A stretch of 32,000 bases of DNA. It comes from Pirellula staleyi DSM 6068. GTDB lineage: Bacteria > Planctomycetota > Planctomycetia > Pirellulales > Pirellulaceae. The stretch lies in NCBI GenBank assembly GCA_000025185.1, contig CP001848.1, positions 1,350,001-1,382,000 of the forward strand, given 5' to 3'. Below, piece by piece: positions 10,081-32,000 of the stretch. The position numbers and the translations under genes were made by a program. The notes beneath the pieces are model-generated. The model ran no database searches. It saw only the letters and a program-made list of their open reading frames with translations, and was not told where the DNA came from. How positions within the stretch are numbered: the stretch's first letter is position 1; the number at the start of each line of letters is the position of its first letter.

Positions 10081-10269
10081 TAAGACCTCGCAGAGGAAAG
10101 ACTCAAGGTGTGGTGGTCGCGCGAAGGAGCGGCTGAAGAAATCGAGACTTCGCTATCGTATTCTCGCGCACCAGTGCGGTGCAAATAACGCGCGATTATT
10201 TGCCATCGCAAGCTTCTCGCCAACAGCTGCGCATGCGTTGGGCCTGCGAAATACGGAGTCGATGCTGCT

Positions 10270-15517: not shown

Positions 15518-15523
15518 AGAATG

Positions 15524-16831: not shown

Positions 16832-17877
16832 GAGCGCACCTCGCTGATCAAAGGAAATCCGGGGGTGGCGAGCGTGGTGCCATCGCGCAGCGTGAAGTAG
16901 GCATCGATTCCGGGGCGACTGGCGAGGAGCTTCATGCTGCGGACGGGACCAAGCACAAAGCAGGCGGTTGACCACGCGTCGGCAAGCGTGCAATCGGGTG
17001 CTGCCACCGAGCAACTCGTTACGATTTGCGGCGAGCAACCGGTGTGAGGATCGAGCAGGTGATGATCGGTCGAGTGGGGAGAGAAGCGGGTGGCATAGTC
17101 CCCGGATGTCGAGAGGGATCGCCCCTGCAGTTCCACGAGCATCGGTGCCCCGCTCATCAGCGGATTAGCGATTCCAACTTGCCAATCTTGGGAGTCGGTT
17201 TTAGTGCCCAGCGGTCGAATTTCCCCGGCATCAATCAAGGCATGCTCAATTCCCCATTCTTTTAAGGTCTCGAATGCCTGGTCAGTTGCATAGCCTTGAG
17301 CAATTCCATTGAAAGTTATTTGCATCCCAGGATCTTGAAACGTAATGCAGTCGCTTTGAATATTGATTTTGCGGTAATCAACAAGTTGGCGAGCCGTTTG
17401 AAGATCGCTCGGACCTGTAGTTTGAAGATGGTGTTTGGCAGCGTAGTAGTTCCAGAGTGGCTGAACGCTGATATCAAACGCCCCTTGGGTGGTTGAAGAG
17501 ACGGCGTGAGATTGCTGGAGAATGTCGACCAGCATCGCCGAGGGGGTATCGAGCTTCCCCACTCGGTTGAGCCGCGAAATTTCGCTATCGGGGCGATAGA
17601 TGCTCAGCGACTGCTCGACACGCTCGATGGTGGCAAAAGCTGCGTCGATCGCGGCTGTGGCGTACTGCGAATCGTCGTGAATCACGCCGATGGCGACTTT
17701 GGAGCCGAGTGCGTGGGAGGTTTTGCGGTGGAGTCGCGAGTGGTTGGCATGCGGCTCGCGTGGCTGTCCACTGAGTGACCAAGTTGCCAGAGACGAGGTT
17801 GCCAGCGAACTGGCTATGACGGCGCCGAGCCCGATCGATCCGAGCAGGAGCTTGCGCCGTGAAAGTGTGGGTTGCAT
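16828..17877 (-). CDS. apbE: ApbE-family FAD:protein FMN transferase with Tat-type signal
   Basis: Start set at the ATG at 17877 (MQPTLSRRKLLLGSIGLGAVIASS, twin-arginine signal). ApbE motifs SIYRPDSEISRLN, FDISVQPLWNYY, FNGIAQGYATDQA, GDYATRF...HHLLDPHTG. Confidence 0.9.
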   Translation of the reverse strand: MQPTLSRRKLLLGSIGLGAVIASSLATSSLATWSLSGQPREPHANHSRLHRKTSHALGSKVAIGVIHDDSQYATAAIDAAFATIERVEQSLSIYRPDSEISRLNRVGKLDTPSAMLVDILQQSHAVSSTTQGAFDISVQPLWNYYAAKHHLQTTGPSDLQTARQLVDYRKINIQSDCITFQDPGMQITFNGIAQGYATDQAFETLKEWGIEHALIDAGEIRPLGTKTDSQDWQVGIANPLMSGAPMLVELQGRSLSTSGDYATRFSPHSTDHHLLDPHTGCSPQIVTSCSVAAPDCTLADAWSTACFVLGPVRSMKLLASRPGIDAYFTLRDGTTLATPGFPLISEVRS

Positions 17878-18469
17878 CAGCCGCCTCGAAGGAGTGTTGC
17901 TCGCGAGTGAATTTGCCCCTGGTGAATCGCCAGGCGCGAGCTTGGGTGATGGGGCGAATTCTAGCGAGCGGGAGTCGCGCGCTGCAACGAAAAAACCAGC
18001 GGCTGAGAAATCGATGCACCAGAAAAACGACTTTAGTAGTTCTACTTTAGTAGTCGTAGTGGTTCGTTGAGACTCTGTCTCACTGATGCCGCGTTGTGGG
18101 AGCCTCGACAGCAGTCGCTTGCACCGGCGATTAGCGACCGCTCGATCCCGGCCATGATCGAAAAAAGGGCGGAAGTTTTCCTGGCTCTGCCTGAGGGGGT
18201 TAAGAGCCCAGGAAATGCGGTGCGGCTGGTGCGGTAACACTTGGGGTGTGCTGACCGTTTGTGGCAGTGAGCGAGACATGGTTTACGGTTAATGGCGTGG
18301 ATGTGGACCCTCTGGGGGCAAAGGTAGTTAGGGTGTGGGTGCAGTATGCGGTAGATGCGGGTAGTCGTATCGCCTGAAAAGGCGCTATCTATCCCACAAA
18401 GGGATGGTTTAGTTGCTTGACGGTGTTCGAACCGCTGATTATTCTCCCCCCCTGCACCACTCTGTACTT

Positions 18470-20767
18470 ATGGGGGATATTGCCGTGCCTCCCGCGCCGT
18501 CCAGGATTACGATTCGACAGCTGATTTCCGCCATGGAATCTGGGTCCCCTCTTGCGCCGCATGCTGTGCTGGGGGTGACTGAAGGTGAGACCTTGCCGGC
18601 GGTGATAGAGCAGGCGTATCGGCTGCGTGTGAGTGAGCTGGCGGGTGTGCGAAGCGAGCTTGGTGAGTCGCGTGTAGGCAAAGTGATGCGCGCGATTTCA
18701 GCCGCTAAGGTTCAGCTCACTTCGGCGCCTGGCTCAGCAGCCGCGGCGGTCGGTTTGCCAGTCAGGGGGGCGGCTCCAAGTGCTGCGCCGCTGCCAGAAC
18801 GCTCGTTTGCGTTGGGAGCTCCGCAAGGTCCTTCTCCACTGGGTAAGCCTGCTCTCTCCTCGGCTGTATCCTCGTCGCCGGAACACTCGTCGCCACTCGA
18901 TACGCTGCGGTTCAGTCCGTTGATGCTGGCGTTTGGGGGTGGTGCTGCGGTCGGTGTCGTCGTGCTGCTGCTGGTTGTGGTGGTGTGGTCGCTGAGTGGT
19001 TCGAAATCGCGCACGCCTGTAGCTGATGCAAACGCTGCGAGTAGCTTGCCGAGCCCCCTGTTTCCCAGTGTTCCGAGTTTGCCTCCTCCTCCGCCGCCCG
19101 TAGTCCCAGAGTTGCCCGTAGTCCCAGAGTTGCCCGTAGTCCCAGAGTTGCCCGTAGTCCCAGAGTTGCCTGTAGTCCCAGAGTTGCCTGTAGTCCCAGA
19201 GTTGAGTCAGCCGCCACCTCCGCAGCCAGCAGTGCCGGATGTGAGTGTGCCGGATGTAAGCACGCCACCACCTTCCGCTTCTTCGCCTGCGGTGAAATTG
19301 CCTCCCCCCCGACCAGCGTTCGGCTTTGGGGGTGGAGGTAGTCTCCCTTCCGACAGCGGCGCGGATGATACGGCAGGCGGTTTCTTTCCGTCGAGCCGTC
19401 CCGCTGGCTCAGAGCCAAAATCCGTTCCGAGTGCTGCCTCGCCCGGCAGCTTTTCGGGGGCTCCCTTTGGTGGTCAGCCTGCGACTCCTGTCGCAGGATC
19501 GTCCCGTCCCGCACTACCAGCCACCTCGAACGGTCCACCCGAGCGTTCGCTCTCCGATTTACTACCGGGTGGAAAGAGTAGTGAGTCAGGAACAGGAACA
19601 TCGAGCGCGAAGTCTCCCGCTGCTGTCGATTACAGCCCCACGCTGCAGTTGCCTCCGACAGGGAAGTCCGAACCGGTTCAACTCTTGGCCGGTGACTTTG
19701 CGAAGAGTGATTTAACGATCGATGGCTCGGCCGCCGAGTTAGATGGCAACTTGGTGTTTGCGATATCGAAGATCGCTGGCTCAGCGCCGCCGAGTTGGCG
19801 CATCGAAACCGTTCCTGGAGCTCCGCCCGTTGCAGCCAGCGGGGCTGATCGAGCCAAAGCAGCAGCGCCGTCGGTTTTCGCGCGGCCCGAATCGACAGGA
19901 CCGACGACCGTAGCGATATGCACGCTCGAATCGCGAGGCATTACGTTTCAGTGGGAGCCCCAAGTGGCGGCAACCACCGCTGGGCAACTCACGAACTGTT
20001 TGATCTATGTCACGACCGATCAGAAGTCGACGGTCTACTCGCTCCGGTCATACATCAATGCGTCGCGTGTTCCGCTCGACCTGTCGAAGTCGCCGCAGCG
20101 GATCGTAGTCCCTCTCGAGCATCTTCCGAAATCAGAACGGATCCGGCTCGAAGTGAGGCCGAAATCAGGTTTCGTCTCCACGCTGGAGATCGAGCCACCG
20201 GAAGGGAAAGTGGGAGTGAATCGTCGTCTGCGGATCGTTCCCAAGGCGGAGTACAACGTCGAGTTTCAGTTTGATTTGAGTTTACTTTCGGGCGAATTGA
20301 ATTTGTTTCATCGTCCATTCTTCTCGCTCGGCAATTCGCAGCGACAAGAGTTCACCACTGAGAAGCTCGAGAGCCTGGTCGCATCGACAAGTCTGAAGAT
20401 TCGTCGCGATATCGACCGCCACGATGAGCTGAAGCGAAGGTTGGGAGCGATTGGCGACGAGATCTCGCAGGCCAACTCGGCACGTGTCACGACGGCGCAG
20501 CGCAATGCGGTGCTGTCGCGTTTATTGCAAGAGCGCAAGTCTTCGATCAGCGGGATCGAGCGTCTCAGCCGATCGATTCCCACCACCCAAGAGGCGCTCG
20601 AGGCACTCGAGAACTACGCCAAGCTGGCCGAGCGACTTCACCTTGTGACGGAGGTGGAGGTGCGCATCACTGCCCTTGGGGAACATGGCGAGATTCCACT
20701 TTGGCTCGGCACGATGCCGGTAACGGTCGCACCCGAAGCGAGTGCCCCACGGAGGTCGGCATCGTAG
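18470..20767 (+). CDS. Hypothetical single-pass membrane protein: small N-terminal cytoplasmic domain, TM, long Pro-rich repeat linker, beta-rich ectodomain, coiled coil
   Basis: ATG at 18470 preferred (MGDIAVPP...). TM LMLAFGGGAAVGVVVLLLVVVVWSL. Six VVPELP repeats. C-terminal half has alternating beta-like pattern, then a heptad-rich segment. No family recognised. Confidence 0.7.
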   Translation: MGDIAVPPAPSRITIRQLISAMESGSPLAPHAVLGVTEGETLPAVIEQAYRLRVSELAGVRSELGESRVGKVMRAISAAKVQLTSAPGSAAAAVGLPVRGAAPSAAPLPERSFALGAPQGPSPLGKPALSSAVSSSPEHSSPLDTLRFSPLMLAFGGGAAVGVVVLLLVVVVWSLSGSKSRTPVADANAASSLPSPLFPSVPSLPPPPPPVVPELPVVPELPVVPELPVVPELPVVPELPVVPELSQPPPPQPAVPDVSVPDVSTPPPSASSPAVKLPPPRPAFGFGGGGSLPSDSGADDTAGGFFPSSRPAGSEPKSVPSAASPGSFSGAPFGGQPATPVAGSSRPALPATSNGPPERSLSDLLPGGKSSESGTGTSSAKSPAAVDYSPTLQLPPTGKSEPVQLLAGDFAKSDLTIDGSAAELDGNLVFAISKIAGSAPPSWRIETVPGAPPVAASGADRAKAAAPSVFARPESTGPTTVAICTLESRGITFQWEPQVAATTAGQLTNCLIYVTTDQKSTVYSLRSYINASRVPLDLSKSPQRIVVPLEHLPKSERIRLEVRPKSGFVSTLEIEPPEGKVGVNRRLRIVPKAEYNVEFQFDLSLLSGELNLFHRPFFSLGNSQRQEFTTEKLESLVASTSLKIRRDIDRHDELKRRLGAIGDEISQANSARVTTAQRNAVLSRLLQERKSSISGIERLSRSIPTTQEALEALENYAKLAERLHLVTEVEVRITALGEHGEIPLWLGTMPVTVAPEASAPRRSAS
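19100..19207 (+). repeat. In-frame 18-bp tandem repeat x6 (gtagtcccagagttgccc; encodes VVPELP), followed by a 15-bp x2 repeat at 19232-19261 (VPDVS)
   Basis: Units at 19100, 19118, 19136 (identical), 19154 and 19172 (c to t at the last base) and 19190 (degenerate end). Read directly from the sequence. Confidence 0.95.
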
Positions 20768-20773
20768 CGCGGG

Positions 20774-21505
20774 ATGAAACGAAATCAGGCGATATCCATG
20801 AGCACTTCAACCTTGAGAACATCGCAAGCCCCCAGGAAGCAGCAAGTGTCGGAACCACGAAAGATTTTGCTAAGGCCGCGTGCTCTGGCGCTGCTGATGA
20901 TGCTTGGAAGCCTGGCGCTGGGAGGCTGTTTCTCCCCGCCTCCGCCAAGCGAGCCGCCGCCGGCTGTCGAGAGCGAGTCCACCGATAGCCCAGCGCCAGC
21001 AAAAGCAGCGGAAGCCGCAACGGATCCAGCTGCTGAAGAGGCTCCGCCAAAGCCTGACAGCGAAACCGCTCCGCCTCCAGCGAGTGCGGGTGCAGAGGAT
21101 CCCGGCGCTGGTCAGCCGCCAGCGGCCAGCGGTGCTTCGAAAAACGACAAGTCGGGTCCCCAGGATCGCCCGAGTGGGATGGGACGCTCGCAAGCTGCTG
21201 CTGGAGATTTCGCGAGTTCGGCAGCTAAGGAGGCTGATAGCAAGCTGAGCCTAGCGGAAAGCGCGCGCTTAGCCGCGCAAATGCGCGCGAAAGCGCGTGA
21301 GCTGCAAGCCACCAATCCCGGCCAGGCGTTCGAGGCGGCACTGCGTGGCTGGCAGCTGACCTCGCGTTTTCCGGACGACCCGGCATGTGCTGCCATGCAT
21401 GGCGAGTTTGGTCGCATGCTCGACCTCCTGGGGACTCAAGCCAACAGCGGCCTAGGTGGTAGCACTCCCCCCTTACGAGCAAACGCCGAAACAATCATCG
21501 AATAG
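20774..21505 (+). CDS. Putative lipoprotein with acidic/Pro-rich low-complexity linker and small helical C-terminal domain
   Basis: Signal peptide ending in the lipobox LALGGC. Starts 6 nt after the stop of the preceding gene. An alternative start at the internal Met (MSTSTL) is possible. Confidence 0.65.
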   Translation: MKRNQAISMSTSTLRTSQAPRKQQVSEPRKILLRPRALALLMMLGSLALGGCFSPPPPSEPPPAVESESTDSPAPAKAAEAATDPAAEEAPPKPDSETAPPPASAGAEDPGAGQPPAASGASKNDKSGPQDRPSGMGRSQAAAGDFASSAAKEADSKLSLAESARLAAQMRAKARELQATNPGQAFEAALRGWQLTSRFPDDPACAAMHGEFGRMLDLLGTQANSGLGGSTPPLRANAETIIE

Positions 21506-21706: not shown

Positions 21707-21709
21707 GTG

Positions 21710-23002
21710 ATGTCGACGAAAGCCCCGCGCCAAGATCTACCGCGCAGCGATGACGTGAAAATTCGATTGCGTATCACCTGTCCGCATTGCTGGTCGAACT
21801 TTGCGACCGAAGATGTGCACTGGCTCACCGAGCACGAACTGCTGCGCGGCGATCCGATGCTTGGGCCCGATGCTCAGCAACGATTCTTGCCGACACGTTT
21901 CGACGTCGCCGGAAATGCCATCGATTCGAGCGGCATGACCTGCCAGAGCCTTGCCTGTCCTAAGTGCCATCTCACTTTGCCTCGCGTAATGATTGATATG
22001 GCCCCGGTATTTGTTTCGATCCTGGGAATTCCCTCGTGCGGCAAGTCCTATTTCTTGTCGTCGATGACGTGGCAGATGCGGCGCACTCTGCCACACTACT
22101 TTGCCATCGACTTTAGCGACGCCGATCCCGCCTCGAACGAAATCCTGAATCAGTACGAGCGACAGCAGTTTTTAAACGCTGATTCGCGTGCGATTGTGAA
22201 GCTCGACAAAACCGAAGAGCAAGGATACTGGTACGACGCGGTGCGTTATGGCGATCAGATCGTCAACTATCCGCGTCCTTTTCTCTTCGGGCTGCGACCT
22301 TTGTTTGGGCATCCCAGTTTTGAGAATCGGAGCGATGTCTCGCGCGTTCTCTGCATGTACGACAACGCGGGCGAGTCGTTTCAGCCCGGCAAAGATACAT
22401 CGGCCAACCCCGTCACGCGTCACTTGGCCCGTTCTCAAGCGATGCTGTTTCTATTTGATCCCACGCAAGACCATCGATTTCGCGCAGCGTGTGTCGGTCG
22501 CTCATCCGACCCGCAAATGACCTCCACGCGGGCTCAAGTCTATCGCCAAGATACCGTGCTTCACGAAGCAGCATCACGCGTGCGCAAATACACAGGACTT
22601 AAACACGACGAGCGTCATAATCGACCTTTAATTGTGGTTGTCACGAAATACGATGCTTGGGAACCGCTTCTCCCTGGTTTGTTAGATACACCTCCCTTCT
22701 TGCCGCAAAAGAGTGGTGCGGCTCATGCACTCGATTGGGAGCGTGTACGTGAGACCTCGGCGAAGCTTCGTCACCTCCTTTGGCAGCACTCGCCCGAATT
22801 GGTATCTGGGGCTGAAGCGTTTGCTCAAGAGGTGGTCTATGTGCCCGTCAGTGCCACCGGCTGTGCTCCGGTCACCAATGAGCAAGGAGCAATCGAGGGG
22901 ATGCGCACCGGAGATATCCAGCCGAAGTGGGTCGAGGTGCCGATGCTGGTGGTCCTCGCGCGATGGTCGAAAGGTCTGATTCCTTATAATCGTCGGACTT
23001 AG
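21710..23002 (+). CDS. Zn-ribbon-fused P-loop GTPase (TRAFAC-type, all G motifs present)
   Basis: CPHC...CPKC (nt 21779-21964). G1 GIPSCGKS (22025-22048). G3 DNAG (22361-22372). G4 TKYD (22643-22654). G5 SAT (22850-22858). Confidence 0.85.
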   Translation: MSTKAPRQDLPRSDDVKIRLRITCPHCWSNFATEDVHWLTEHELLRGDPMLGPDAQQRFLPTRFDVAGNAIDSSGMTCQSLACPKCHLTLPRVMIDMAPVFVSILGIPSCGKSYFLSSMTWQMRRTLPHYFAIDFSDADPASNEILNQYERQQFLNADSRAIVKLDKTEEQGYWYDAVRYGDQIVNYPRPFLFGLRPLFGHPSFENRSDVSRVLCMYDNAGESFQPGKDTSANPVTRHLARSQAMLFLFDPTQDHRFRAACVGRSSDPQMTSTRAQVYRQDTVLHEAASRVRKYTGLKHDERHNRPLIVVVTKYDAWEPLLPGLLDTPPFLPQKSGAAHALDWERVRETSAKLRHLLWQHSPELVSGAEAFAQEVVYVPVSATGCAPVTNEQGAIEGMRTGDIQPKWVEVPMLVVLARWSKGLIPYNRRT

Positions 23003-23058
23003 AAGGCGCTACTCACTGACGGTTGTACTTCATTGAATGTTCGGGAGAGGCTTGTTGT

Positions 23059-25593
23059 ATGTCGCAGGAGATTATTTATACATCCGCACCACAAGGCTTA
23101 CGCCCAGGTAGTTTTGGGTTTTGTATTGTGGCGATGACAACCGGAATGCCCACGCCTTTGGCCGAGCGGCTCGAGTCGTTGTCGGGGTATCGCCATGTCT
23201 ATTCCCCTGGCGATCCGCGCGCGGTGAATAATCCTGTCGTCCATTCGCATGTGCAGCTGAAGATCGGTGCTCAAAAGTATTTTGTCCTCTCGCGACTCGC
23301 AGACGCTGGTTTCGACTATTCGCAGCGCACCAACAAGCTGGTGCATCATGTGGCTCTCGAGCCATCAGAGCTGGTTCCGGCGGGACCAGCTTGGGTTCTT
23401 TCGCAGCCCGGATATATGGTCACCTCGTTCAGCGGACAGCCCCATTTGCTTCCGGCGGGACGTCGCACACCAGCGGGCGAGATTCCGCGCACCGTTTGTC
23501 ATCGCTGGGGAGAGTTGACCGGCGATCCAGGTTGGGGTGCGGTGCTGGCTTCGAGCGCGCTCACCGGGGGAGCACTCACGCCTGGTGCGGGACGCCCGGT
23601 CCATCTGATTGTTCCCGAGGGGCTCGATCCCTTGCCGCTGATCGTCGAAGCGCAGTCGCTTCTCCCTTCCCAGCGGCGCTGGGAGGTTTCGTTCTCCACC
23701 TTCTTCACACGCTTGCCCCCCGGCGTCGAGTGCCAGTGGCGCTGTGTCCTGGCGGGAACTCCCGAGGCGACCGCGCTGGCCGGAATGCGTGGCGATTTGG
23801 TGATCGATCTCACGCGTCCTCTCGGTCCTGCTCCCGACACTCCCCTCTCCGCTGCAGCCCGCACTGGCGTGTTTCCAGCCGAGCCTGCTCCAACCACTCG
23901 GGCGATTCCGACGACACAGGCAGCTCCGGTGCAGCTGGCTCGACCGGTGCGCGAGTCGGCTGCGGAGGAACTCCGTTTGGGGCCACCTCCGGCACCCGGC
24001 GGCGCAAGAGCTCGCACCAGCAGCAGCGGCGTGATGATCATCGACGACGGCCCCCCCGAGCTTCCTGGCGAAACGACTCCACCCCCGATGACGAGCCTCC
24101 ACCGACGAAGCGCGCCGTCCGCTGGATTTGGTTGGTCGCATCTGACAGCGGTCGCCATGGTGGCTGCGTTGGTGGGTGTGGTGGTGGGCTATCTTTTCCG
24201 TTCCTCGCAAACCGATCCCGCCCCGATCGCCACCCAAACAGCCGCCCCTGCAATTCCCGCTACCGACAACCAGCCCCCTGCTCCTCCCGCTGCAGCGGCT
24301 CCCGACCCTCAGCCTCCCGCCATGCCTTCACCAGCACCACCCGCTACTCCACCAGTCTCGCCAGTAGGTGAGAAGAATACGGCCAACGCCGAGAATCCGG
24401 CGTCAAAAAGCCCTACTGGCGATACTACTCCTGCGGCAGCAAATGGCGGGACTGCTCAGCCGATGCCCGCTGCAGAGAATCCGCCCACGCCATCAGTTCC
24501 CACGCCTGTCCCTGCACCCCCGGCGGTCGTCGAACTGAAGTACGGCCCCGAACCCCTCGAGTCGATCCTGGCGCTGAAGCATGGATCAGACCCGCGTGAG
24601 ATCAAGCTGGCTAGTTTTCCAAAATCAGACGGGAGCGCAATATCCAAGATTGAGCTTCTGGGCGCACCAAAGTCACTACGCATTGAGAAATCAAAGGATA
24701 ACTCTTGGGTGGTGCAGTTTAACAACGGAACAAAAATCGGGAGTGACATACCAACGGCCGAGTTTACTCAGGTCGAAGAAGGTAGTAGTTTCGCGCTGAT
24801 GGCATCTCAGCGGACGCCTGGAGTAGCATGGAATGATCTATGTGGTAGCGTGATTCAAGTGATTCACGAAAAAGGTCAAGAACATATCCTTTATCTAGTC
24901 AAGCCACATTTAGTTGTTACTAAACAAGGGAAAATATCGCCCTGTTTTGTGGAGTATAACATGCCTTATCTAGAGCTGATGGATAGGTTTGACAAAGAAC
25001 TTTTCTTTGATGTGTCTGATATACACATTGAAACCATTCCGAGTGGCAATTGGAAATCAGCTACGAAGGGCAGATGGCAGCATACATATGTATGTCATAA
25101 TGCGACTGAGATAGACACTCAGGTAGAGGCAGAATTCAGTGGGCAGCCTCGAAAAACAACAAAGATAGCAATTCGCGTGCGATTTCATCAGAAAGATTCA
25201 ACGAAGCTACTCGATGAAAATGCAATTCAGGACATCGGCAATCGGTTATCAAACTACAGGAAAGTATTTCTAGATGAGTGGGAGAAGGCAAAGCTAGACA
25301 GAGATAATGCAGAAAAGGATTTCAATGCTGAAGCAAAGCCAGAAGAGAAAGAGAAGAAGCGACAAAAGCTTGATGTATTGAAAAATAAATTTATCGAGAT
25401 CGATAGCAGTCGCGAACGTTTCGATTCGGATTACCCCAAAATAATTACTACATCAGAGGGACGAGAGGTCATCGCTTCACTTAGTAAAAATGCCTCCGCT
25501 AAGTCAGCTCCTAGAGCTAAGGTAACGATTGGACGTGAGATCAAGACCGAGTCGCAAAGTATTAAGGTGCCTTATTTGTTACTTGTGGATTAG
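23059..25593 (+). CDS. Single-pass membrane protein with GAP1-N-like (GTPase-associated protein 1 N-terminal-like) cytoplasmic domain, Pro-rich linker and low-GC extracytoplasmic C-terminal module
   Basis: ATG at 23059 preceded by gggagagg. The N-terminus MSQEIIYTSAPQGLRPGSFGFCIVAMTTGMP...LSGY resembles the xxYTS..GL..G..GF opening of GAP1-N-type domains; this is from memory and unverified. TM at nt 24130-24198. C-terminal beta-rich domain plus Lys/Glu coiled coil. Confidence 0.75.
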   Translation: MSQEIIYTSAPQGLRPGSFGFCIVAMTTGMPTPLAERLESLSGYRHVYSPGDPRAVNNPVVHSHVQLKIGAQKYFVLSRLADAGFDYSQRTNKLVHHVALEPSELVPAGPAWVLSQPGYMVTSFSGQPHLLPAGRRTPAGEIPRTVCHRWGELTGDPGWGAVLASSALTGGALTPGAGRPVHLIVPEGLDPLPLIVEAQSLLPSQRRWEVSFSTFFTRLPPGVECQWRCVLAGTPEATALAGMRGDLVIDLTRPLGPAPDTPLSAAARTGVFPAEPAPTTRAIPTTQAAPVQLARPVRESAAEELRLGPPPAPGGARARTSSSGVMIIDDGPPELPGETTPPPMTSLHRRSAPSAGFGWSHLTAVAMVAALVGVVVGYLFRSSQTDPAPIATQTAAPAIPATDNQPPAPPAAAAPDPQPPAMPSPAPPATPPVSPVGEKNTANAENPASKSPTGDTTPAAANGGTAQPMPAAENPPTPSVPTPVPAPPAVVELKYGPEPLESILALKHGSDPREIKLASFPKSDGSAISKIELLGAPKSLRIEKSKDNSWVVQFNNGTKIGSDIPTAEFTQVEEGSSFALMASQRTPGVAWNDLCGSVIQVIHEKGQEHILYLVKPHLVVTKQGKISPCFVEYNMPYLELMDRFDKELFFDVSDIHIETIPSGNWKSATKGRWQHTYVCHNATEIDTQVEAEFSGQPRKTTKIAIRVRFHQKDSTKLLDENAIQDIGNRLSNYRKVFLDEWEKAKLDRDNAEKDFNAEAKPEEKEKKRQKLDVLKNKFIEIDSSRERFDSDYPKIITTSEGREVIASLSKNASAKSAPRAKVTIGREIKTESQSIKVPYLLLVD

Positions 25594-25664
25594 CCGTGAC
25601 GTTTGCGATGTGGTGGATGTCACAGGTCACGTAAGATTCAAGTAAATTTGTTAGTGAGTTGGTT

Positions 25665-28628
25665 ATGCTTGATTATCAGCGGATTGTGGAAGAGATTCAG
25701 GCGGCGATTCATTCGCAGGGCACGCTCGATTGGGATTTGCTGCGCGATGCGTCCGCCGAATATGCCGCTGCTTGCGACGAAGTGAACACCCGGCTCGAGC
25801 GGATCAGTAAGCTGCTGCGGCAAGGACTTCGAAGCGAGGCGATTCAGCTCGCCGATTTGGAGCCCCCGCTGCTCGATTCAGCGGCAATCCTCGATTTTCC
25901 CGAGCTTCCCGAGTGGGTTCAGCTGCTGACGATCAACGGCATGGTTCCGCCCCCTGCGATTCGGATCGAAATTGCCAGCGATCTCAATGCGGCCTATGCC
26001 CTGGAAGCGCCGCTGATGGCGCATCTGAAATCGCACCGACTTCTGGCCCTCGCTCGTGCTCCCCTCACTGTCCGCATTCAAACCTTGCGACAGATTCACC
26101 GGGCCGATGCGCATAACCCGATCTGGGCCACTGATCTCACGATCCTAGAAACTGCGCGACAAACCGAGGTCGCCCGGCAGGCTGAAGAGTGCACCACCAG
26201 TCGACACTTGCCAGCGCTCGAGCAACTTTGCCACGAGCTTGCCATGCCCGACTGGCTAGCGCAGCCACGTCGCGACTTCATCGATTCGATTGCCAGGCGC
26301 CGCGATCGTTTGGTGGTCGTACAGGCTCGCGAGAAACTGGAGGCGATCGAAGGGGAACTCGCCAACTGCTATGGCGCGTTCGATGTCGCAGCTGGTCGTG
26401 CAGCGCGCGACGCTTGGAATAGGGAAGCGGCCAAGGCGGGACTCTTGGCCGACGATCCACTGGCTCAAGCGGCAACTCCCGCACTCGCCTGGCTCGCCGA
26501 ACAAGATCGTCGCGAAGCGCGGGATCGCGAGTTCGCAATCGCTGTCGATAACCTCGAGCGGGCACTCGAAGAAGAAAAAGATCGCGCGACACTCACGCGT
26601 CTGTTTCACGCTATAGAACGGCTCGAGCAACGTCCTCCCGATCTCTTGTTGCGGCGCTATCACGAACAGATGCGGCAGTTCGAAACCGATCAGCGGCGCC
26701 GCTTTGTTCTGATCACCTCTGCCACCGTCCTCGCCTTGCTGCTTGTTGCCGGTGGGATCAGCTGGGTGGCAATCCGGGCGAGCGAACACCGCCGCATGCT
26801 CGCGACAGCAGAACAGCTACGTCAGCTGATTGATAGCTCGCAGTGGAAACAGGCGTCTGAGCTTTTGGCGCAGCTGCAAGTCAGCGACCCGCGTATCGCG
26901 CAGGCGACCGAAATTCAGTCGCAAAATGTTCGTCTGCAGGAGCTCGAAAAAGCGGAGTCCGAACGTCGTGCGGCGTTCGAGCAGTATCTGCAGCAGGCAC
27001 GCAGCTCCGATCCCGAGCGCCCCGATCGTCTGGCGCTCTCGGAGGCCAAAAAGGTGGCCATCGGAGCTGCAGAGAAAGCCGACGTTGCTCGACTCGAGTC
27101 CGAGTTTGCCAGTCTCGATCGCGCTCGGCAACAAAAGCGAGATTCCGAGTTCCAAGCTTCGCTGGAAACGATTTTGTTCGGAGTTGAGAAGGTCGAGGCG
27201 ACGCTGGCCGACGATCCGGTTGCGCCAGTCAAGGAGCTCGCGCAGCTGGTTGCTGAGATCGATGCACTTGGGAAAAGTACCGGTGGTGTCTCGACCTCTT
27301 TGATCGCGCAGCTGGCACCACTCAAGCTGCGGCTCACGTCGCTTCAGCAGCAGCGTGCGGCGCGTATGGACGAGTATCGCGCGCTCGAACAGTTGACGAC
27401 GCATATTGGTCAGCCCGAGGCCTACCAAAGTGCGCTGCAGAAGTTTGTCGAGAAGTTTCCGACATCGCCGCTGGCGATAGAGTTTGCACGAACGACAGCC
27501 GAACTGCCGTACTGGGAAGTGCAGGAGCGGTGGCGAAAACTACTTGGACAAAAGGCCTTTCGAAGCTTGCCTAACGTCCAGCCGCTCGAGGCTGCCAAGC
27601 TCCTCGAGGAGGCGAATGAAATTCAGCTGTTTGGTCAGCCATCGCCACTCGCTGAAAAGTTTGATGCGAAGCGAAAGTATCTGCAAGGAATCGCCGACCG
27701 ACTAGACGACGATGGTCAGCCGATTGTGAAACAGCTCGATGAAGTCTTTAAAGATGTGTTCATCACGGGACTTTGGTACGTCGAAGCAACGGGTGGCGAT
27801 CGCTATTACTTGTCAAAAAGTTTCGAGCAGTATCTTGCAAAACCGGGTGAAACGATTGGATTTGAACATATCGTTTCATTTGACTTGCAAACGCTGACGA
27901 AGCGACACCCAAGAAGCGGGATCGCGCGGCATGGTACGGCGCCGCAAGCAGCTTTAGCGAGCGCCGCGCGAACGCATCTGGCGATCGTCACCAACGGCGA
28001 TTGGGAGAAAGGGATGTATGGTCTGCTCCGCGCGACACTCGACGACAGCGAGACCGATCCGCTGCTGAAGTTCATCTTGGTGCAGCGCATTTTGGAGACA
28101 GCCGAGACAGGGAGTCACTCCATTGCCGAAGCGCTGGGGCCTTCCATCGCGCGGGTGAAAGGGGCCGATGTCGATGTCACGGCCAACTGGCTCTTGCCGA
28201 CCGATGCAGCGGCAGCAGCAGCGCGGCTGAAAGCGCGAGCCCTCTTGGGATCGCTTAGCGATCTATCGAGCGAGGCGCGCAAAGCGGCAGAAATTCTGCG
28301 CGCTGATACGAGTCCCATCGAGGTTCCTCCGGAGTGGATTGGCGTGCTCGTTCCGATCGGCGAAGGACGCTGGAAATGCCTCGGAAGTCCGCAAGTAGCT
28401 GTGGGGGAACTCTATGTCATCGATCCGACTGCCGAGAAGTCGGCGGGTGGAATTTGGCAGCGCGTGGGGACTTACGATCGAGCCAAAACGACCTGGCAAA
28501 ACGGAACATCGAACTCGATGGCGGCGGGGCGACCCTTGTACTTGGTGACTCGGGGGCCGGGGGCGCTCAGCTCTCCTGCTGACCAGCCGAGTGAAGTTTC
28601 CAGCCGCCGTTCCGAGCGACTGCAATGA
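25665..28628 (+). CDS. Large all-helical single-pass membrane protein (987 aa): about 345-aa cytoplasmic helical domain, TM, about 615-aa extracytoplasmic helical/coiled-coil domain
   Basis: ATG at 25665 (MLDYQRIVEEI). TM FVLITSATVLALLLVAGGISWVAI at nt 26703-26774. Heptad-rich Ala/Glu/Arg/Gln sequence on both sides. No family recognised. Confidence 0.8.
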   Translation: MLDYQRIVEEIQAAIHSQGTLDWDLLRDASAEYAAACDEVNTRLERISKLLRQGLRSEAIQLADLEPPLLDSAAILDFPELPEWVQLLTINGMVPPPAIRIEIASDLNAAYALEAPLMAHLKSHRLLALARAPLTVRIQTLRQIHRADAHNPIWATDLTILETARQTEVARQAEECTTSRHLPALEQLCHELAMPDWLAQPRRDFIDSIARRRDRLVVVQAREKLEAIEGELANCYGAFDVAAGRAARDAWNREAAKAGLLADDPLAQAATPALAWLAEQDRREARDREFAIAVDNLERALEEEKDRATLTRLFHAIERLEQRPPDLLLRRYHEQMRQFETDQRRRFVLITSATVLALLLVAGGISWVAIRASEHRRMLATAEQLRQLIDSSQWKQASELLAQLQVSDPRIAQATEIQSQNVRLQELEKAESERRAAFEQYLQQARSSDPERPDRLALSEAKKVAIGAAEKADVARLESEFASLDRARQQKRDSEFQASLETILFGVEKVEATLADDPVAPVKELAQLVAEIDALGKSTGGVSTSLIAQLAPLKLRLTSLQQQRAARMDEYRALEQLTTHIGQPEAYQSALQKFVEKFPTSPLAIEFARTTAELPYWEVQERWRKLLGQKAFRSLPNVQPLEAAKLLEEANEIQLFGQPSPLAEKFDAKRKYLQGIADRLDDDGQPIVKQLDEVFKDVFITGLWYVEATGGDRYYLSKSFEQYLAKPGETIGFEHIVSFDLQTLTKRHPRSGIARHGTAPQAALASAARTHLAIVTNGDWEKGMYGLLRATLDDSETDPLLKFILVQRILETAETGSHSIAEALGPSIARVKGADVDVTANWLLPTDAAAAAARLKARALLGSLSDLSSEARKAAEILRADTSPIEVPPEWIGVLVPIGEGRWKCLGSPQVAVGELYVIDPTAEKSAGGIWQRVGTYDRAKTTWQNGTSNSMAAGRPLYLVTRGPGALSSPADQPSEVSSRRSERLQ

Positions 28629-29667
28629 ACGTGGCGAATCGAATGTTTCAGGGGGGCCACTGTTCCCCCTCACCACTCCCCACCGAACCTCCTTCCACCC
28701 CCGACGTGCTCCATTGACCGATCAGTTTTACATTCGAATTCGTGGGCGTGTGCAAGGCCCGTTTGATAGCGAAAAGTTACGTGGACTCGCGCGGCGTGGC
28801 CAGTTCAGCAGGCTCTATGAAGTCTCGCGCGATGGCCAAACATGGCAGCCAGCGAAGGACTTTCCCGAACTCTTCGCGGCACCAGCAGCGCAGGTTGCGC
28901 AGCCAGCAGCAGCGCAAACCACTGCGGCTCCCTCCGCTGCATCGTCGAAGGGGAACTCGGCATCCAGCGGTGGAGGATACAGCTTACAATCCCCCGCGCC
29001 GCAAAACGCAACGAGCGCGGCCACTTGGTACTACGCCTATCAAGGTCGCGAGCAAGGACCGATCGATTTTAACACGCTGGCCAGCATGTTCAGCTCACGG
29101 CAGTTAGCGCCGGAAACTGAGGTCTGGAGTCAGGGGATGATCAACTGGACTCCGGCCCAAAACGTGCCCGGCCTCGTACCGCCACAAGCGCCGACCAAGA
29201 GCAGCATGGGAGTGAGTTCCTATAGCACCGAGAGTGTCCGTAGCGAAACCGAACAGGTCTCGGCCGCGACCATCCGCGCACTGACCGACTCGAGACCTTG
29301 GGTCGCGTTCATTGCGATCATCGGATTCCTCTACGCCCTTCTGACCCTCCTCAGCGGCGTGTTTCAGCTGATCGTTGGAGCAAGGTCGGGCGTATTTCCA
29401 GTCACTGCGAGTGGACTCACGACGATTGTGATGTCACTGGTGATTGCCTTCGGTGCTTGGCTGCTGGTGAGTTTCGGAAGTGCCATTTCGAACGTCGAAC
29501 GCTCGCGCCGTGAGGCGTCTCTCGTTCGGGCTTTGTCGACACTCAAATCCTTTTGGGTTTATATCGGCGTGGTCTTAATTGTCATCCTTACGTTTGTGAT
29601 TCTAGGAGTCATTCTCGTTATTTCAGTCGCAGGGACGATTGCAGGGTCCTTTCCCGAGCTTGATTGA
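28591..29667 (+). CDS. Double GYF_2-domain protein with polytopic membrane C-terminus (true start possibly TTG at 28714)
   Basis: GYF_2 no. 1 FYIRIRGRVQGPFD...GQTWQPAKDFPELF (nt 28723-28875). GYF_2 no. 2 WYYAYQGREQGPID...VWSQGMINWTPAQNVPGL (nt 29026-29175). At least 3-4 hydrophobic helices in the last 130 aa. The GTG at 28591 would overlap the upstream gene by 38 nt. Confidence 0.8.
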   Translation: MKFPAAVPSDCNERGESNVSGGPLFPLTTPHRTSFHPRRAPLTDQFYIRIRGRVQGPFDSEKLRGLARRGQFSRLYEVSRDGQTWQPAKDFPELFAAPAAQVAQPAAAQTTAAPSAASSKGNSASSGGGYSLQSPAPQNATSAATWYYAYQGREQGPIDFNTLASMFSSRQLAPETEVWSQGMINWTPAQNVPGLVPPQAPTKSSMGVSSYSTESVRSETEQVSAATIRALTDSRPWVAFIAIIGFLYALLTLLSGVFQLIVGARSGVFPVTASGLTTIVMSLVIAFGAWLLVSFGSAISNVERSRREASLVRALSTLKSFWVYIGVVLIVILTFVILGVILVISVAGTIAGSFPELD

Positions 29668-29747
29668 AAACCAACGCTGGCGCTTCAGTTGCTCATGATA
29701 ATATTTATTAATATACATTCTATCGCATCATATTAGGCAGGTGGATT
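29668..29747 (+). promoter_or_regulatory. AT-rich spacer, possible internal promoter for the MotA/ExbB-like sub-operon
   Basis: catgataatatttattaatatacattctatcgcatcatattagg is strongly AT-rich against GC-rich flanks. It is followed by aggcaggtgg and GTG at 29748. Confidence 0.3.
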
Positions 29748-30638
29748 GTGGCTTCAAGTTATGAGACGGCACTCGCCGCAAAAACGCTTGCCGATCATCC
29801 GGCGCTCTGCTGGTCCCGGATGGACCTCGAGCAGCGGGTCGGATTTCGTGGCGGCCGATTCACAAAAGTGAACAACTGGCTGGCTTTTTTGATCGCGGCG
29901 GTGGCCACCGTTCTCTTCTATACGGTGGTGATTGTTGCCCGGCAATTTCCGTTCACCCATTCGATGCGCGGTCTGCTCGACTCGTTCACCGATCGCGGTC
30001 CAACCCCTTATGCGATCGTCGCGTTTTCCTGGTGGGCGATTGCGATCCTCCTACTGAAGTGGCGGAAGCTTGCCTTTCAAAAACGATCGCTCACCTATGA
30101 CGTGGTCCCTCGCGATCACGATTTTGTCCTTTCCATTCCAACAGCCGACCGTGTAATTGAGCATATGCATTTGGTAGCCGACGATCCCCGTCACTTTGTT
30201 CTTTATAACCGTATGATGATCGCCCTCTCGAACATGAAAAACCTGGGACGAGTCGCCGATCTTGATGAGATCCTCCGTTCGCAAGGGGAGCATGATGAGT
30301 CGTCGATGGAAACAAGCTACTCGCTGGTGCGCGGGCTTCTCTGGGCGATTCCGGTGCTTGGGTTCATCGGCACGGTGCTCGGACTTTCCGAAGCCATTGG
30401 CGGGTTTAGCAATGTCTTGACCACCGCTACCGACATCTCTTTGGTGCTCGATGCACTGAAGGTTGTTACGGCGGGACTCGCGACCGCTTTTGAAACGACA
30501 CTGCAGGCTCTGGTGGCTGCACTCGGCATTCAAATGCTCCTCACCTTTATCAAAAAGGGAGAAGAGGAATTTTTGGATCAGTGCAGCGATTACTGTATGC
30601 GGCGACTTGTGAGTCGTTTGCGTTTGTCCCCGACGTAA
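29748..30638 (+). CDS. MotA/TolQ/ExbB-family proton-channel protein
   Basis: Conserved C-terminal core LWAIPVLGFIGTVLGLSEAIGGF...GLATAFETTLQALVAALGIQMLL (nt 30321-30557), typical of MotA_ExbB. Two N-terminal TM helices precede a cytoplasmic insert. Confidence 0.85.
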   Translation: MASSYETALAAKTLADHPALCWSRMDLEQRVGFRGGRFTKVNNWLAFLIAAVATVLFYTVVIVARQFPFTHSMRGLLDSFTDRGPTPYAIVAFSWWAIAILLLKWRKLAFQKRSLTYDVVPRDHDFVLSIPTADRVIEHMHLVADDPRHFVLYNRMMIALSNMKNLGRVADLDEILRSQGEHDESSMETSYSLVRGLLWAIPVLGFIGTVLGLSEAIGGFSNVLTTATDISLVLDALKVVTAGLATAFETTLQALVAALGIQMLLTFIKKGEEEFLDQCSDYCMRRLVSRLRLSPT

Positions 30639-30653
30639 CGAAAGGATCGTGCG

Positions 30654-31484
30654 ATGGGACGACGTACCGCGCAAGCACCTTTCTCCCTCTTTTCGTTTCA
30701 AGACATCATCACCTCGGTCACCGGGATTGTGGTCCTGATGCTGCTGGTGATGGCGCTGGAACTCGCGAGCCGCAAGTTGCAAGCGCCAGCCGTGCAGCAA
30801 TCGATCACGCGCGAAGATACACGCGCTGCGCTCTCGGCGGCACAGACCAAAATCCAAGAGCTGCAGCGGATGCTCGAGTCGAGCGACTGGAGCGAGCTTG
30901 CCTCACGAACCCCGACCGAGTTTGCTATCGAACAGGAAGTTTTGACGCGGCAGATTCCCCTTCTGAAGTCCGATCTCGCCGCGGCCAAGCGTCGCGTCGC
31001 TGAGCTCGAGCGACAAGAAAAAGCTGCTCACGACCAGTGGAACGCTCGGGGTAAAGACCGCCAGCAGCTAGAACGAATGGAGGCCGAAATCGGGGCCCTC
31101 GAGGCGAAGCTGAAGAAAGTGCAAAAGTCGGGTACGCTGGTCTATCGCGCGGGGCCACGCGAGTCGCGACAGCCGTGGATCATCGAGTGTACGGCCGCTT
31201 CGATTAGCGCCGCTCCTTTGGGGCCGATATCGAAGCCACTGCAGTTTGTTGGGAGCGATTCTCTTTCGCGCATTCGTCAGGTCGAGGCCTGGGCCAAAGG
31301 CTTGTCGCGCAGCGAGGTCTATCTCGTTTTGATGGTGAAACCGGGCGGGGCTGAGACCGCAACCATCCTCGAGGAGAAGCTGCGCGATTTGGGACTCGGT
31401 GTCGGACTCGATCTTATCGGCAGCGATCAGGCGGCGATCGACCCCGAAGAAGGGGCACCAGTCGTCGAGGAGCCGGCTCGATGA
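30654..31484 (+). CDS. ExbD/TolR/MotB-like N-terminal anchor (Asp17 at TM edge) fused to a coiled coil and C-terminal globular domain
   Basis: FSFQDIITSVTGIVVLMLLV has an Asp at the cytoplasmic edge of a single TM (nt 30702-30704), the same arrangement as ExbD D25, TolR D23 and MotB D32. Followed by a heptad-rich segment. Starts 15 nt after the MotA-like gene. Confidence 0.7.
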   Translation: MGRRTAQAPFSLFSFQDIITSVTGIVVLMLLVMALELASRKLQAPAVQQSITREDTRAALSAAQTKIQELQRMLESSDWSELASRTPTEFAIEQEVLTRQIPLLKSDLAAAKRRVAELERQEKAAHDQWNARGKDRQQLERMEAEIGALEAKLKKVQKSGTLVYRAGPRESRQPWIIECTAASISAAPLGPISKPLQFVGSDSLSRIRQVEAWAKGLSRSEVYLVLMVKPGGAETATILEEKLRDLGLGVGLDLIGSDQAAIDPEEGAPVVEEPAR

Positions 31485-32000
31485 GGCGAAAAACACTCGA
31501 CACCAGCGACAGCCTGGAGCTGCTGCTCGACACCATCTCGAACGCCTTTGGAGGGATTCTGTTCCTCGCGCTGCTGGTCGGTTTACTGCTGCAAATGTCG
31601 CATCGCCCTTCAGCCCCGGTAGAAGTCGACCCCCAGGCAGAAGTGGAGATGATCGAGCTCGACGCCGCCTTGACCGAAGCACTTGCGCAACTGGAATCGC
31701 TCGAGCGCTCGGTTGCGCTGCAGCGGCAATCGCGCGAGCGATTGGTCGACCCCAGCACCGAGCAGATCGCCGCCGAGGTGCGCGCGTCGCGCGCCGAGGT
31801 TAGTGACCTCGAGAAGAAAATCGAGGCTGCCCGCAAGAGTGCCAGCACTACCCAGGTGGAGATCGACGCACTGCGCCGCAGTTCGACGGAGCTCGATAGC
31901 AAACTGGCCACAGCCAAAACCGATCAGGCGGAAGTTGCCAGTCGACTGAAGCGCGAGCAGCTGTTGCGTTCGCAAGTGATAGCGCCTCCCCGAACGCGTG
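31481..32000 (+). CDS. Second Asp-in-TM (Asp17) anchor + coiled-coil protein, 3'-partial (runs off the window)
   Basis: Not in the ORF track because no stop occurs in the window. My translation from the ATG at 31481 is open to 32000: MRRKTLDTSDSLELLLDTISNAFGGILFLALLVGLLL..., then coiled coil. The ATG overlaps the upstream stop (ATGA, 31481-31484). Asp17 codon at 31529-31531. Confidence 0.7.
   Translation, partial: MRRKTLDTSDSLELLLDTISNAFGGILFLALLVGLLLQMSHRPSAPVEVDPQAEVEMIELDAALTEALAQLESLERSVALQRQSRERLVDPSTEQIAAEVRASRAEVSDLEKKIEAARKSASTTQVEIDALRRSSTELDSKLATAKTDQAEVASRLKREQLLRSQVIAPPRTR

Follow-up and report, generated by a model that had tools for sequence, protein, structure and literature searches.

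We analyzed three adjacent genes, here called A, B1 and B2, at positions 29748-32000 of a 32,000-nt stretch of DNA from Pirellula staleyi DSM 6068 (the whole stretch is referred to as the window). Their products probably assemble into a “5:2” motor of the MotA/ExbB/TolQ type, powered by ions and most likely by protons, that would operate within a membrane complex encoded by the same operon. The motor reading and the heterodimeric pairing of B1 with B2 are well supported by comparative evidence, which comprises gene content and its conservation, the paralogy of B1 and B2, the invariance of Asp and Thr residues, heptad patterns, concerted rod lengths and synteny. The trio displays the trait of the 5:2 motor class, namely a gene for an A-type pentamer inherited together with B-type partners that carry a carboxylate in the transmembrane (TM) helix.

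The trio corresponds to Psta_1118-1120; it and the cluster upstream of it lie on the + strand. Gene A (29748..30638) starts with GTG and encodes a MotA/ExbB/TolQ-type channel subunit of 296 amino acids with four predicted TM helices, which is 100% identical to Psta_1118. Gene B1 (30654..31484), assigned to Psta_1119 by its position, encodes 276 amino acids comprising an anchor helix with Asp17, a coiled-coil rod and a C-terminal α/β domain. Gene B2 (31481..32000; 99% identity with Psta_1120) extends beyond the window, which holds the first 173 of its 303 codons. The full-length protein of 303 amino acids was completed from the near-identical Logan contig L001, which supplied the end of the rod and a C-terminal domain of 130 residues. 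A and B1 are separated by a spacer of exactly 15 nt (30639-30653), and the B1 stop and B2 start overlap in an ATGA at 31481-31484. The original prediction, an earlier annotation made from the letters of this DNA, had given these open reading frames, the 15-nt gap and the overlap, and all of them are exact in the sequence.

Judged by profile comparison, A is a remote member of the MotA/ExbB/TolQ channel family. It matches Pfam MotA_ExbB (PF01618) over residues 163-273 with 36.2 bits, above the cut-off of 22.9 (E=5.8e-9), in agreement with the MotA_ExbB core that had been predicted for it, and PF01618 is carried by all listed A homologues. A profile of the A family aligns with TolQ/ExbB over 184 columns, beginning at A residue 76 (hhalign, E=2.9e-6). 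Thr209 and Thr251 are invariant in 39 A homologues and align with T145 and T178 of a verified TolQ sequence, which we take to be the pore-lining Thr residues of the last two TM helices (T148 and T181 in ExbB). Thr209 (codon ACG, 30372..30374) lies in the motif GFIGTVLG and Thr251 (codon ACA, 30498..30500) in the motif AFETTLQALVAA. Rings of Thr facing the Asp of the B subunit are a conserved feature of MotA, ExbB and TolQ motors (PMC12204202).

Hydropathy scanning found four hydrophobic segments in A, and the protein stops 28 residues past the last of them. The first, TM1 (residues 45-63, 29880..29936), is without a counterpart in TolQ. The same is true of the cytoplasmic N-tail that precedes it, where W22, D26, E28, T39 and N42 are invariant (window 29811-29875). 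The A family also has a conserved C-terminal CxxxC (C279 and C283, window 30582-30596), which is missing from TolQ and ExbB. The N-tail motif and the CxxxC might be where the GTPase, GAP1 or GYF partners described below dock. The family is about 60% identical across orders and thereby far better conserved than the B families.

Both B proteins have the basic N-terminus and the Asp17 at the start of a single TM helix that were originally described, and Asp17 is invariant in 48 B1 and 53 B2 homologues that share about 30% identity. In B1 (FSFQD17IITSVTGIVVLMLLV) the anchor spans residues 10-37 (30681..30764), and F13, F15, Q16, D17, I18, T20, S21, V22 and G24 are invariant. In B2 (LLLD17TISNAFGGILFLALLV) it spans residues 9-39 (31505..31597), with D17, N21, F23, G24, G25 and F28 invariant. 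The two Asp codons, at 30702..30704 and 31529..31531, both read GAC as predicted. In genomic pairs fetched independently from species-level genomes the Asp column reads D in 77/77 B1 and 77/77 B2 sequences. An acidic residue within a TM helix sets B1 and B2 apart from all other proteins of the conserved cluster. The net charge of the N-tail is +3.1 in B1 and +1.1 in B2, while the 15 residues past the TM helix carry about 0 and -0.7, respectively; an N-in/C-out topology of both proteins fits the positive-inside rule.

BLASTP detected nothing between B1 and B2. By hhalign, however, the two anchors match position by position, Asp17 against Asp17 (E=1.5e-4), and the two C-terminal domains align with a probability of 93% (E=2.9e-7), while cross-controls of anchors against end domains gave nothing. 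These alignments mark B1 and B2 as distant paralogues. In all loci where the sequence extends far enough to tell (74/74), B2 is the gene immediately after B1. The distances from the Asp to the end domain, determined by hmmalign (an earlier attempt with regex landmarks gave only 7 pairs), co-vary between B1 and B2 within a locus (Pearson 0.80, Spearman 0.35). Four lineages shift both rods in the same direction (B1/B2): L051 by +25/+10, L068 by +20/+11, L056 by -24/-39 and L079 by -18/-25. Their B1 proteins have a mutual identity of at most 37%. Such concerted lengths are expected of a single paired rod and are hard to explain if B1 and B2 act apart.

A heterodimeric B1:B2 axle appears to be the best reading because the paralogy is in register, the two genes are constantly co-encoded and the rod lengths are concordant. 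The pairing suggested by the original prediction is thus supported, although the novelty then seen in two distinct B subunits is weakened by the precedents discussed at the end. We consider it very unlikely that each B protein instead forms a homodimeric axle of its own (A5:B1_2 or A5:B2_2), so that the motor would exist in two alternative forms differing in end domain and target. Canonical ExbD, TolR and MotB are homodimeric (PDB entries), the end domains of B1 and B2 differ in size and strand content, and the rod changes are concordant yet unequal (+25/+10 and -24/-39), as might be expected of separate axles. Against this stand the strict adjacency of the genes and their translational coupling through the ATGA, distal rod helices of identical length in B1 and B2, length changes in the same direction in four independent lineages, a single A gene per cluster, and the heterodimer precedents of AglQ/AglS and the transpore helix (TPH)-vWA pairs.

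The rods were assessed on AlphaFold2 single-chain models built from family alignments, with a mean predicted local distance difference test score (pLDDT) of 85.1 for B1 and 84.6 for B2. Both models begin with the anchor helix (B1 13-42, B2 9-39), continue in two long helices with a short break between them and end in a compact α/β domain. The rod of B1 (residues 45-159, 30786..31130) consists of helices 45-75 and 87-159, and that of B2 (residues 51-163, 31631..31969) of helices 51-88 and 91-163, so that the distal helix has 73 residues in both. Heptad periodicity is present in each rod: the best period of the family-averaged hydropathy is 3.45-3.50 residues in all four helical segments, and for the 73-residue distal helices 0/2000 shuffles match the observed periodicity power. 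The B1 and B2 rods are genuine heptad coiled coils. Their length is conserved but their sequence is not (B1 114-130 residues, mode 120; B2 121-151 residues, mode 126).

Long coiled coils had been predicted in place of a peptidoglycan-binding or TonB-like domain. The coiled coils are indeed there, but both chains go on to end in a conserved α/β domain. That of B1 (residues ~165-265, 31146..31448; compact part 173-254) has the order β-β-β-α-β-α-β with pLDDT 93-98 and no Pfam or PDB sequence match. That of B2 (region ~170-303; compact part 173-302) has extra strands. The C-terminal Gln of B2 is invariant in every homologue, mostly after Val (..VQ; L001 2105-2107), which suggests a specific terminal contact or a processing signal. 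P0394 (163 amino acids), a single sequence, is a B1 relative whose rod is cut to about 18 residues. Anchor, linker and end domain together then have the size of ExbD, and the deletion could be natural or an artefact of assembly.

B1 and B2 share several traits with ExbD and TolR, namely a single TM helix that is N-in by charge bias, a conserved Asp near its cytoplasmic end and a gene beside A. By sequence comparison, however, they are not members of the ExbD/TolR or MotB families, and no homology to ExbD, TolR or MotB emerges from it. Several results weigh against the proposed motor. The original prediction had likened the anchors to those of ExbD, TolR and MotB and had named a lack of profile similarity as evidence to the contrary; no profile similarity was found. 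When compared with ExbD/TolR and MotB/ZorB anchors, the B1 and B2 anchors gave no Asp-on-Asp alignment and scored within column-shuffle controls, whereas the positive control, MotB/ZorB against ExbD/TolR anchors from the same thin references, aligned Asp-on-Asp with E=6.4e-4. Either the distance of B1 and B2 from the known B families exceeds that among those families, or B1 and B2 have no homology to them. The C-terminal domains of 28 B1 and 25 B2 members yielded no consistent Pfam family match at E<=10, and their profiles matched no PDB sequence. These profiles were obtained by splitting the proteins into domains after whole-protein B1 and B2 profiles had given only coiled-coil noise against PDB. 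With Foldseek, the B1 end domain found TolR (5by4) only at rank 10 with E=7e-3, where integrase cores and ribosomal protein S11 score equally well, and the B2 end domain found nothing. A search of PDB with the A-family profile returned no chain at E<=0.01. Finally, the topology is read from charge bias alone, and the length correlation between the rods is carried by few lineages, as the Spearman coefficient indicates.

Several assignments were tried and rejected. The ExbD model (PF02472) has no match in full-length B1 or B2 at E<=1, and hhalign of the C-terminal domains to an ExbD/TolR alignment verified against PDB gave only E>=0.19; together with the empty Pfam (53 members) and PDB profile searches, this led us to reject the C-terminal domains as ExbD/TolR at the sequence level. 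Canonical ExbD genes were sought in the fetched DNA as a richer reference, and none was found there. A kinship with MotB/ZorB anchors, suspected from a common D-Φ-Φ-T pattern, was unsupported by comparisons in which the positive control worked. Membership of B1 and B2 in MotB/PomB/ZorB was likewise dismissed, as there is no OmpA or MotB Pfam match in addition to the unaligned anchors.

The lack of any Asp-registered similarity to known B anchors, although the known families detect each other, would be expected if B1 and B2 formed a bitopic coiled-coil pair outside the pore. Such a pair could sit on the A pentamer, like the TolA, TonB or GltG transducers, or be independent of A, like the divisome heterodimer FtsB/FtsL, with the Asp serving helix packing. 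B2 has a sub-threshold match to Pfam FtsL_2 over the TM helix and the start of the coiled coil (20.3 bits, cut-off 24.6), one B1 relative has been named FtsB by the Joint Genome Institute, and FtsB and FtsL are N-in bitopic heterodimeric coiled coils. However, FtsB and FtsL are proteins of about 100 amino acids without a conserved TM Asp, and the linkage of the pair to A is near-absolute (A is found in 46/47 loci with enough upstream DNA). Furthermore, the cluster encodes no other acidic partner for a MotA/ExbB pentamer, yet the Thr ring of A is invariant. The SHLS/His motif carried by TolA/TonB-type helices (PMC12204202) is missing from both anchors and was not seen elsewhere in B1 and B2 or in the variable GYF-TM-X proteins described below. 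We therefore regard a location outside the pore as unlikely.

In the motor that we favor, a pentamer of A would enclose the N-terminal helices of one B1:B2 heterodimer, with both Asp17 carboxylates facing the A rings of Thr209 and Thr251, and a protonation cycle of Asp17 would drive relative rotation. Outside the membrane, B1 and B2 would pair as a two-stranded coiled-coil rod in which each chain contributes a proximal helix of 31-38 residues, a conserved break and the distal helix of 73 residues. Fully extended, such a rod would measure about 16-17 nm (estimated at 0.15 nm per residue). Two paralogous α/β domains would cap it and dock onto a periplasmic, wall, outer-membrane or client partner. 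The stoichiometry, the insertion into the pore, the heterodimer and the periplasmic location of the rod are inferred, as are the direction of force or signal and the biological role. The motor may pull on clients, sense the envelope or leak protons on command, and it may serve immunity or the upkeep of the envelope.

The three genes stand in a cluster which the original prediction did not recognize and of which the trio is the tail end. The order DO-GTPase, GAP1, U989, GYF-TM, A, B1, B2 is conserved in about 80 species-level genomes. Occurrence of the four upstream genes was scored in the 32 loci with about 10 kb of upstream DNA. The GTPase (21707..23002; 26/32 loci) is of the DO-GTPase2 type, with a Pfam DO-GTPase2 score of 26.4 bits just under the cut-off of 27; its orthologues in L002-L004 show the same match, faint or clear, and it is the sole cluster protein without a convincing TM helix. 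GAP1 (23023..25593; 29/32 loci) contains GAP1-N2 (E=3e-28) and GAP1-M (E=4e-14) domains and a TM helix at residues 374-392 that is followed by Pro-rich tracts at residues 424-500. The DO-GTPase and GAP1 pair is also present in L002-L004. U989 (25659..28628; 30/32 loci) is a protein of 989 amino acids with one TM helix (residues 349-367) and no known domain. GYF-TM (28591..29667; 28/32 loci) has two GYF_2 domains (Pfam E=8e-29) and a C-terminal region of 3-4 TM helices. Its mechanically called GTG start overlaps the end of U989 by 38 nt (28591-28628) and its first ~40 residues look non-native; the true start is probably further downstream.

The cluster occurs in Pirellulales, Planctomycetaceae, Thermoguttaceae, the anammox genus Kuenenia and one metagenome-assembled genome (MAG) labelled Verrucomicrobiota. 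In a few genomes B1-B2 is divergent from the remaining cluster, or blocks are permuted while still adjacent. Relatives of B1, detected in 316 species genomes, fall into 827 clusters when grouped at 50% identity (E<=1e-30) and are of uniform length. In the Verrucomicrobiota-labelled MAG (L079, CAZOLK010000052.1) DO-GTPase, GAP1, U989, A, B1 and B2 are complete and both rods are the shortened ones mentioned above; this may reflect a binning error, a transfer or genuine presence in another phylum of the Planctomycetes-Verrucomicrobia-Chlamydiae (PVC) group. One locus, the sole orphan among those fetched, has a B1-B2 pair (L033 9977-11703) with no A, GYF-TM, U989, GAP1 or DO-GTPase within 10 kb on either side.

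Roughly one locus in three carries one to three additional genes in the interval from A to B1 (L002 10846-11925; L003 10858-14017; also L012, L016, L018, L019, L023, L026, L038, L040, L044, L049, L056, L061 and L075). The common layout of their products, which we call GYF-TM-X proteins, is an N-terminal GYF domain, one TM helix, a Gly/Pro-rich linker and a variable outer domain. The latter is a vWA domain with a DxSxS motif, a trypsin-like domain (L038), a squalene-cyclase/TED-like domain or a small β-domain (DVQISLAWNNGNDLDLHV...GELDVDMNA). The GYF-TM-X proteins look like exchangeable periplasmic clients around a constant core.

The upstream genes exactly match the GAP1-N2-type DO-GTPase systems, which were predicted to be conflict systems, often with membrane-acting effectors such as SLATT pores, and whose planctomycete versions contain a double-GYF protein fused to a TM-rich region or trypsin (Kaur, Burroughs, Iyer and Aravind, 2020; PMC7159879). 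The trio might then be a gated proton-leak effector of a conflict system: a DO-GTPase/GAP1 signal would lift the B plug, and A would dissipate the membrane potential in an abortive response. The variable inserts between A and B1, as in an arms-race module, agree with this, and so does a weak PADLOC match of A to ZorA (E=9e-5). But a plain leak would need no paralogous rods of conserved and co-varying length with conserved end domains, the other cluster proteins match no PADLOC model, and the conservation of A across orders together with the near-universal seven-gene order looks more like a vertically inherited core machine than a patchy defence island. An arms race is suggested by the variable inserts, a core machine by the strong conservation and the fixed order of the genes. 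We find a leak effector unlikely. Zorya membership of the cluster was rejected as well: the PADLOC match is a local one to ZorA1 over the MotA core, and no other Zor model matches the cluster proteins.

Returning to the ion-driven motor, it would be the constant part, responsible for energy conversion, of a membrane complex found across planctomycetes. This complex would be the product of the one operon and would include the DO-GTPase, GAP1-N2 with its Pro-rich tracts, the 989-residue bitopic protein, the GYF-TM adaptor and often the variable GYF-TM-X proteins. On the cytoplasmic side DO-GTPase and GAP1 would act as a switch, and the GYF domains would bind the Pro-rich tracts. A more far-reaching version, which we put forward as possible but doubtful, is a GTPase-gated, proton-driven trans-envelope machine found throughout the phylum. 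In it a B1:B2 driveshaft of an independent B lineage would turn in, or be held by, a TolQ-like pentamer and link the DO-GTPase/GAP1/GYF switch to exchangeable periplasmic clients (vWA, protease, TED-like), as a planctomycete counterpart of the logic of the Agl-Glt focal adhesion or of Zorya. If true, these unusual bacteria might owe an envelope function of their own to such a machine.

The text and one supplement of the 2020 study never mention MotA, ExbB or TolQ, in contrast to the constant motor trio seen here, and our literature search found no paper connecting DO-GTPase or GAP1 with MotA/ExbB. The planctomycete DO-GTPase/GAP1-N2 cluster appears not to have been described with the motor trio as a constant member.

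The surroundings of the cluster were also inspected. Promoter and terminator scans inside the cluster gave nothing above shuffle expectation. Gene A is directly preceded by an AT-rich spacer of 80 nt (29668-29747; ATAATATTTATTAATATACATTCTATCGCATCATATTAGG) in an operon that is otherwise GC-rich and tightly packed; the spacer may hold an internal promoter or regulatory site, and the sigma-70 scan made no call there. The operon ends with B2, and the next gene on L001 is a convergent glucan-phosphorylase gene. Between the two, L001 2187-2222 contains a perfect 9-bp inverted repeat, CCCGGGAGC ... GCTCCCGGG, with a 13-nt loop and a T-run after it. This is likely a bidirectional terminator, which the pattern scan overlooked because of the loop length.

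Two more genes lie upstream of the GTPase on the same strand (18413-21505). One encodes a bitopic protein of 784 amino acids (U784; TM helix 173-191, Pro-rich tracts 210-275) that recurs only in L066, and the other a protein of 243 amino acids with a lipoprotein-like signal (..SLALGGC) that recurs in L008, L048, L057 and L063. Just upstream of the cluster, on the - strand, is a redox set (13361-18279) consisting of a polyferredoxin of 718 amino acids with many 4Fe-4S motifs, a protein with TPR and FMN_bind domains and an ApbE flavin transferase. Also on the - strand (7195-13161), a STAND-type NTPase of 963 amino acids with NACHT/AAA and TPR regions (10270-13161) adjoins a Ser/Thr kinase of 961 amino acids with an N-terminal zinc ribbon (7195-10080); the two give the window a further pair of signalling or conflict-type genes. 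A ComM-like AAA+ protein of the Mg-chelatase/MCM type is encoded at 1435-3057, followed at 3090-4583 by a protein with a weak TerB-like region and a C-terminal HIRAN domain.

5:2 motors, which include the flagellar stators and the Ton, Tol, gliding/type IX secretion and Zorya motors, are a small set of machines that convert ion flow to mechanical work, and each new architecture has so far revealed a new mode of force or signal transmission. The family proposed here would add an axle of two paralogous chains with a coiled-coil rod of fixed length and unclassified end domains. DO-GTPase/GAP1-N2 systems have been known only from the 2020 computational prediction, and the trio would supply an energy source and a mechanical output for at least the planctomycete versions. 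The envelope biology of Planctomycetota is unusual and poorly understood, and the seven genes would flag a conserved and apparently unstudied machine in it.

Of the known systems, ExbB-ExbD and TolQ-TolR resemble the trio in several respects. The GxxGT and TT motifs are conserved in A, which also has the MotA_ExbB domain and a short cytoplasmic domain. B1 and B2 are small N-in bitopic proteins with an Asp near the cytoplasmic end of the TM helix and genes directly downstream of A, and the B1 end domain has the secondary-structure order of ExbD/TolR, with TolR among its Foldseek matches. Unlike ExbD and TolR, B1 and B2 lack profile similarity in both anchor and end domain and carry a coiled coil of about 120 residues between the two. 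In contrast to Ton and Tol, the present system has B subunits of two kinds, which are paralogous and both obligatory. A has a further TM helix at its N-terminus, the genes are set in a GTPase cluster, and no TonB- or TolA-like partner is encoded there.

GldL-GldM and PorL-PorM are 5:2 motors. Their inner subunit, a dimer, starts with an N-terminal TM helix and extends across the periplasm as a long shaft that relays motion to distant components; they are thus an analogue of a long periplasmic shaft on a dimeric subunit. However, GldM is a homodimer of globular domains and not a coiled coil, the charged pair is placed differently, with the acidic residue on GldL and an Arg on GldM, and GldL does not belong to the Thr-ring proteins of Pfam MotA_ExbB. 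In Zorya, too, a MotAB-like motor has been recruited into a system of several genes, in which a long coiled-coil extension passes a signal over a distance, and A matches ZorA1 weakly. There, the tail is on ZorA and cytoplasmic and ZorB has a peptidoglycan-binding domain, while in the present system the rods belong to B1 and B2, with a predicted periplasmic location, and homologues of ZorC and ZorD are absent from the cluster proteins.

The closest working analogue of the proposed machine would be the Agl-Glt system of Myxococcus. Its TolQ-like AglR pentamer is predicted to hold an AglQ:AglS heterodimer (AglR5:AglQ:AglS; PMC11761067). On its cytoplasmic face, a GTPase switch and a membrane protein bearing a GYF domain govern the motor, which acts across the envelope, and gate its assembly; the GYF domain of GltJ binds AglZ (PMC11135422). 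Both systems thus combine a GYF membrane protein, a GTPase and a TolQ-like A subunit with two different B proteins, both have vWA components, and our GYF-TM protein has a weak NCBIfam match to GltJ (E=0.011). The planctomycete complex would be the second motor wired to a GTPase through GYF adaptors. It differs in that AglQ and AglS are without long coiled coils, that the GTPase is a DO-GTPase with GAP1 and not MglA/MglB, and that the cluster has no Glt outer-membrane genes and no known link to motility.

Pairs of TPH-vWA proteins encoded beside tolQ-like genes have an Asp-bearing transpore helix, occur “predominantly in heterologous pairs” and have been modelled inside a TolQ-like pentamer against the Thr ring; they have vWA end domains and disordered linkers and are found mainly in Proteobacteria and Verrucomicrobia (PMC12204202). 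B1 and B2 differ from them in their coiled-coil linker, in their small unclassified α/β end domains and in being planctomycetal and GTPase-linked. Taken together, two distinct B subunits and long B subunits are not new, the former having precedents in AglR5:AglQ:AglS and in the TPH-vWA pairs, whereas a coiled-coil axle pair with its own end domains and constant membership in a DO-GTPase/GAP1-N2 cluster appears to be new.

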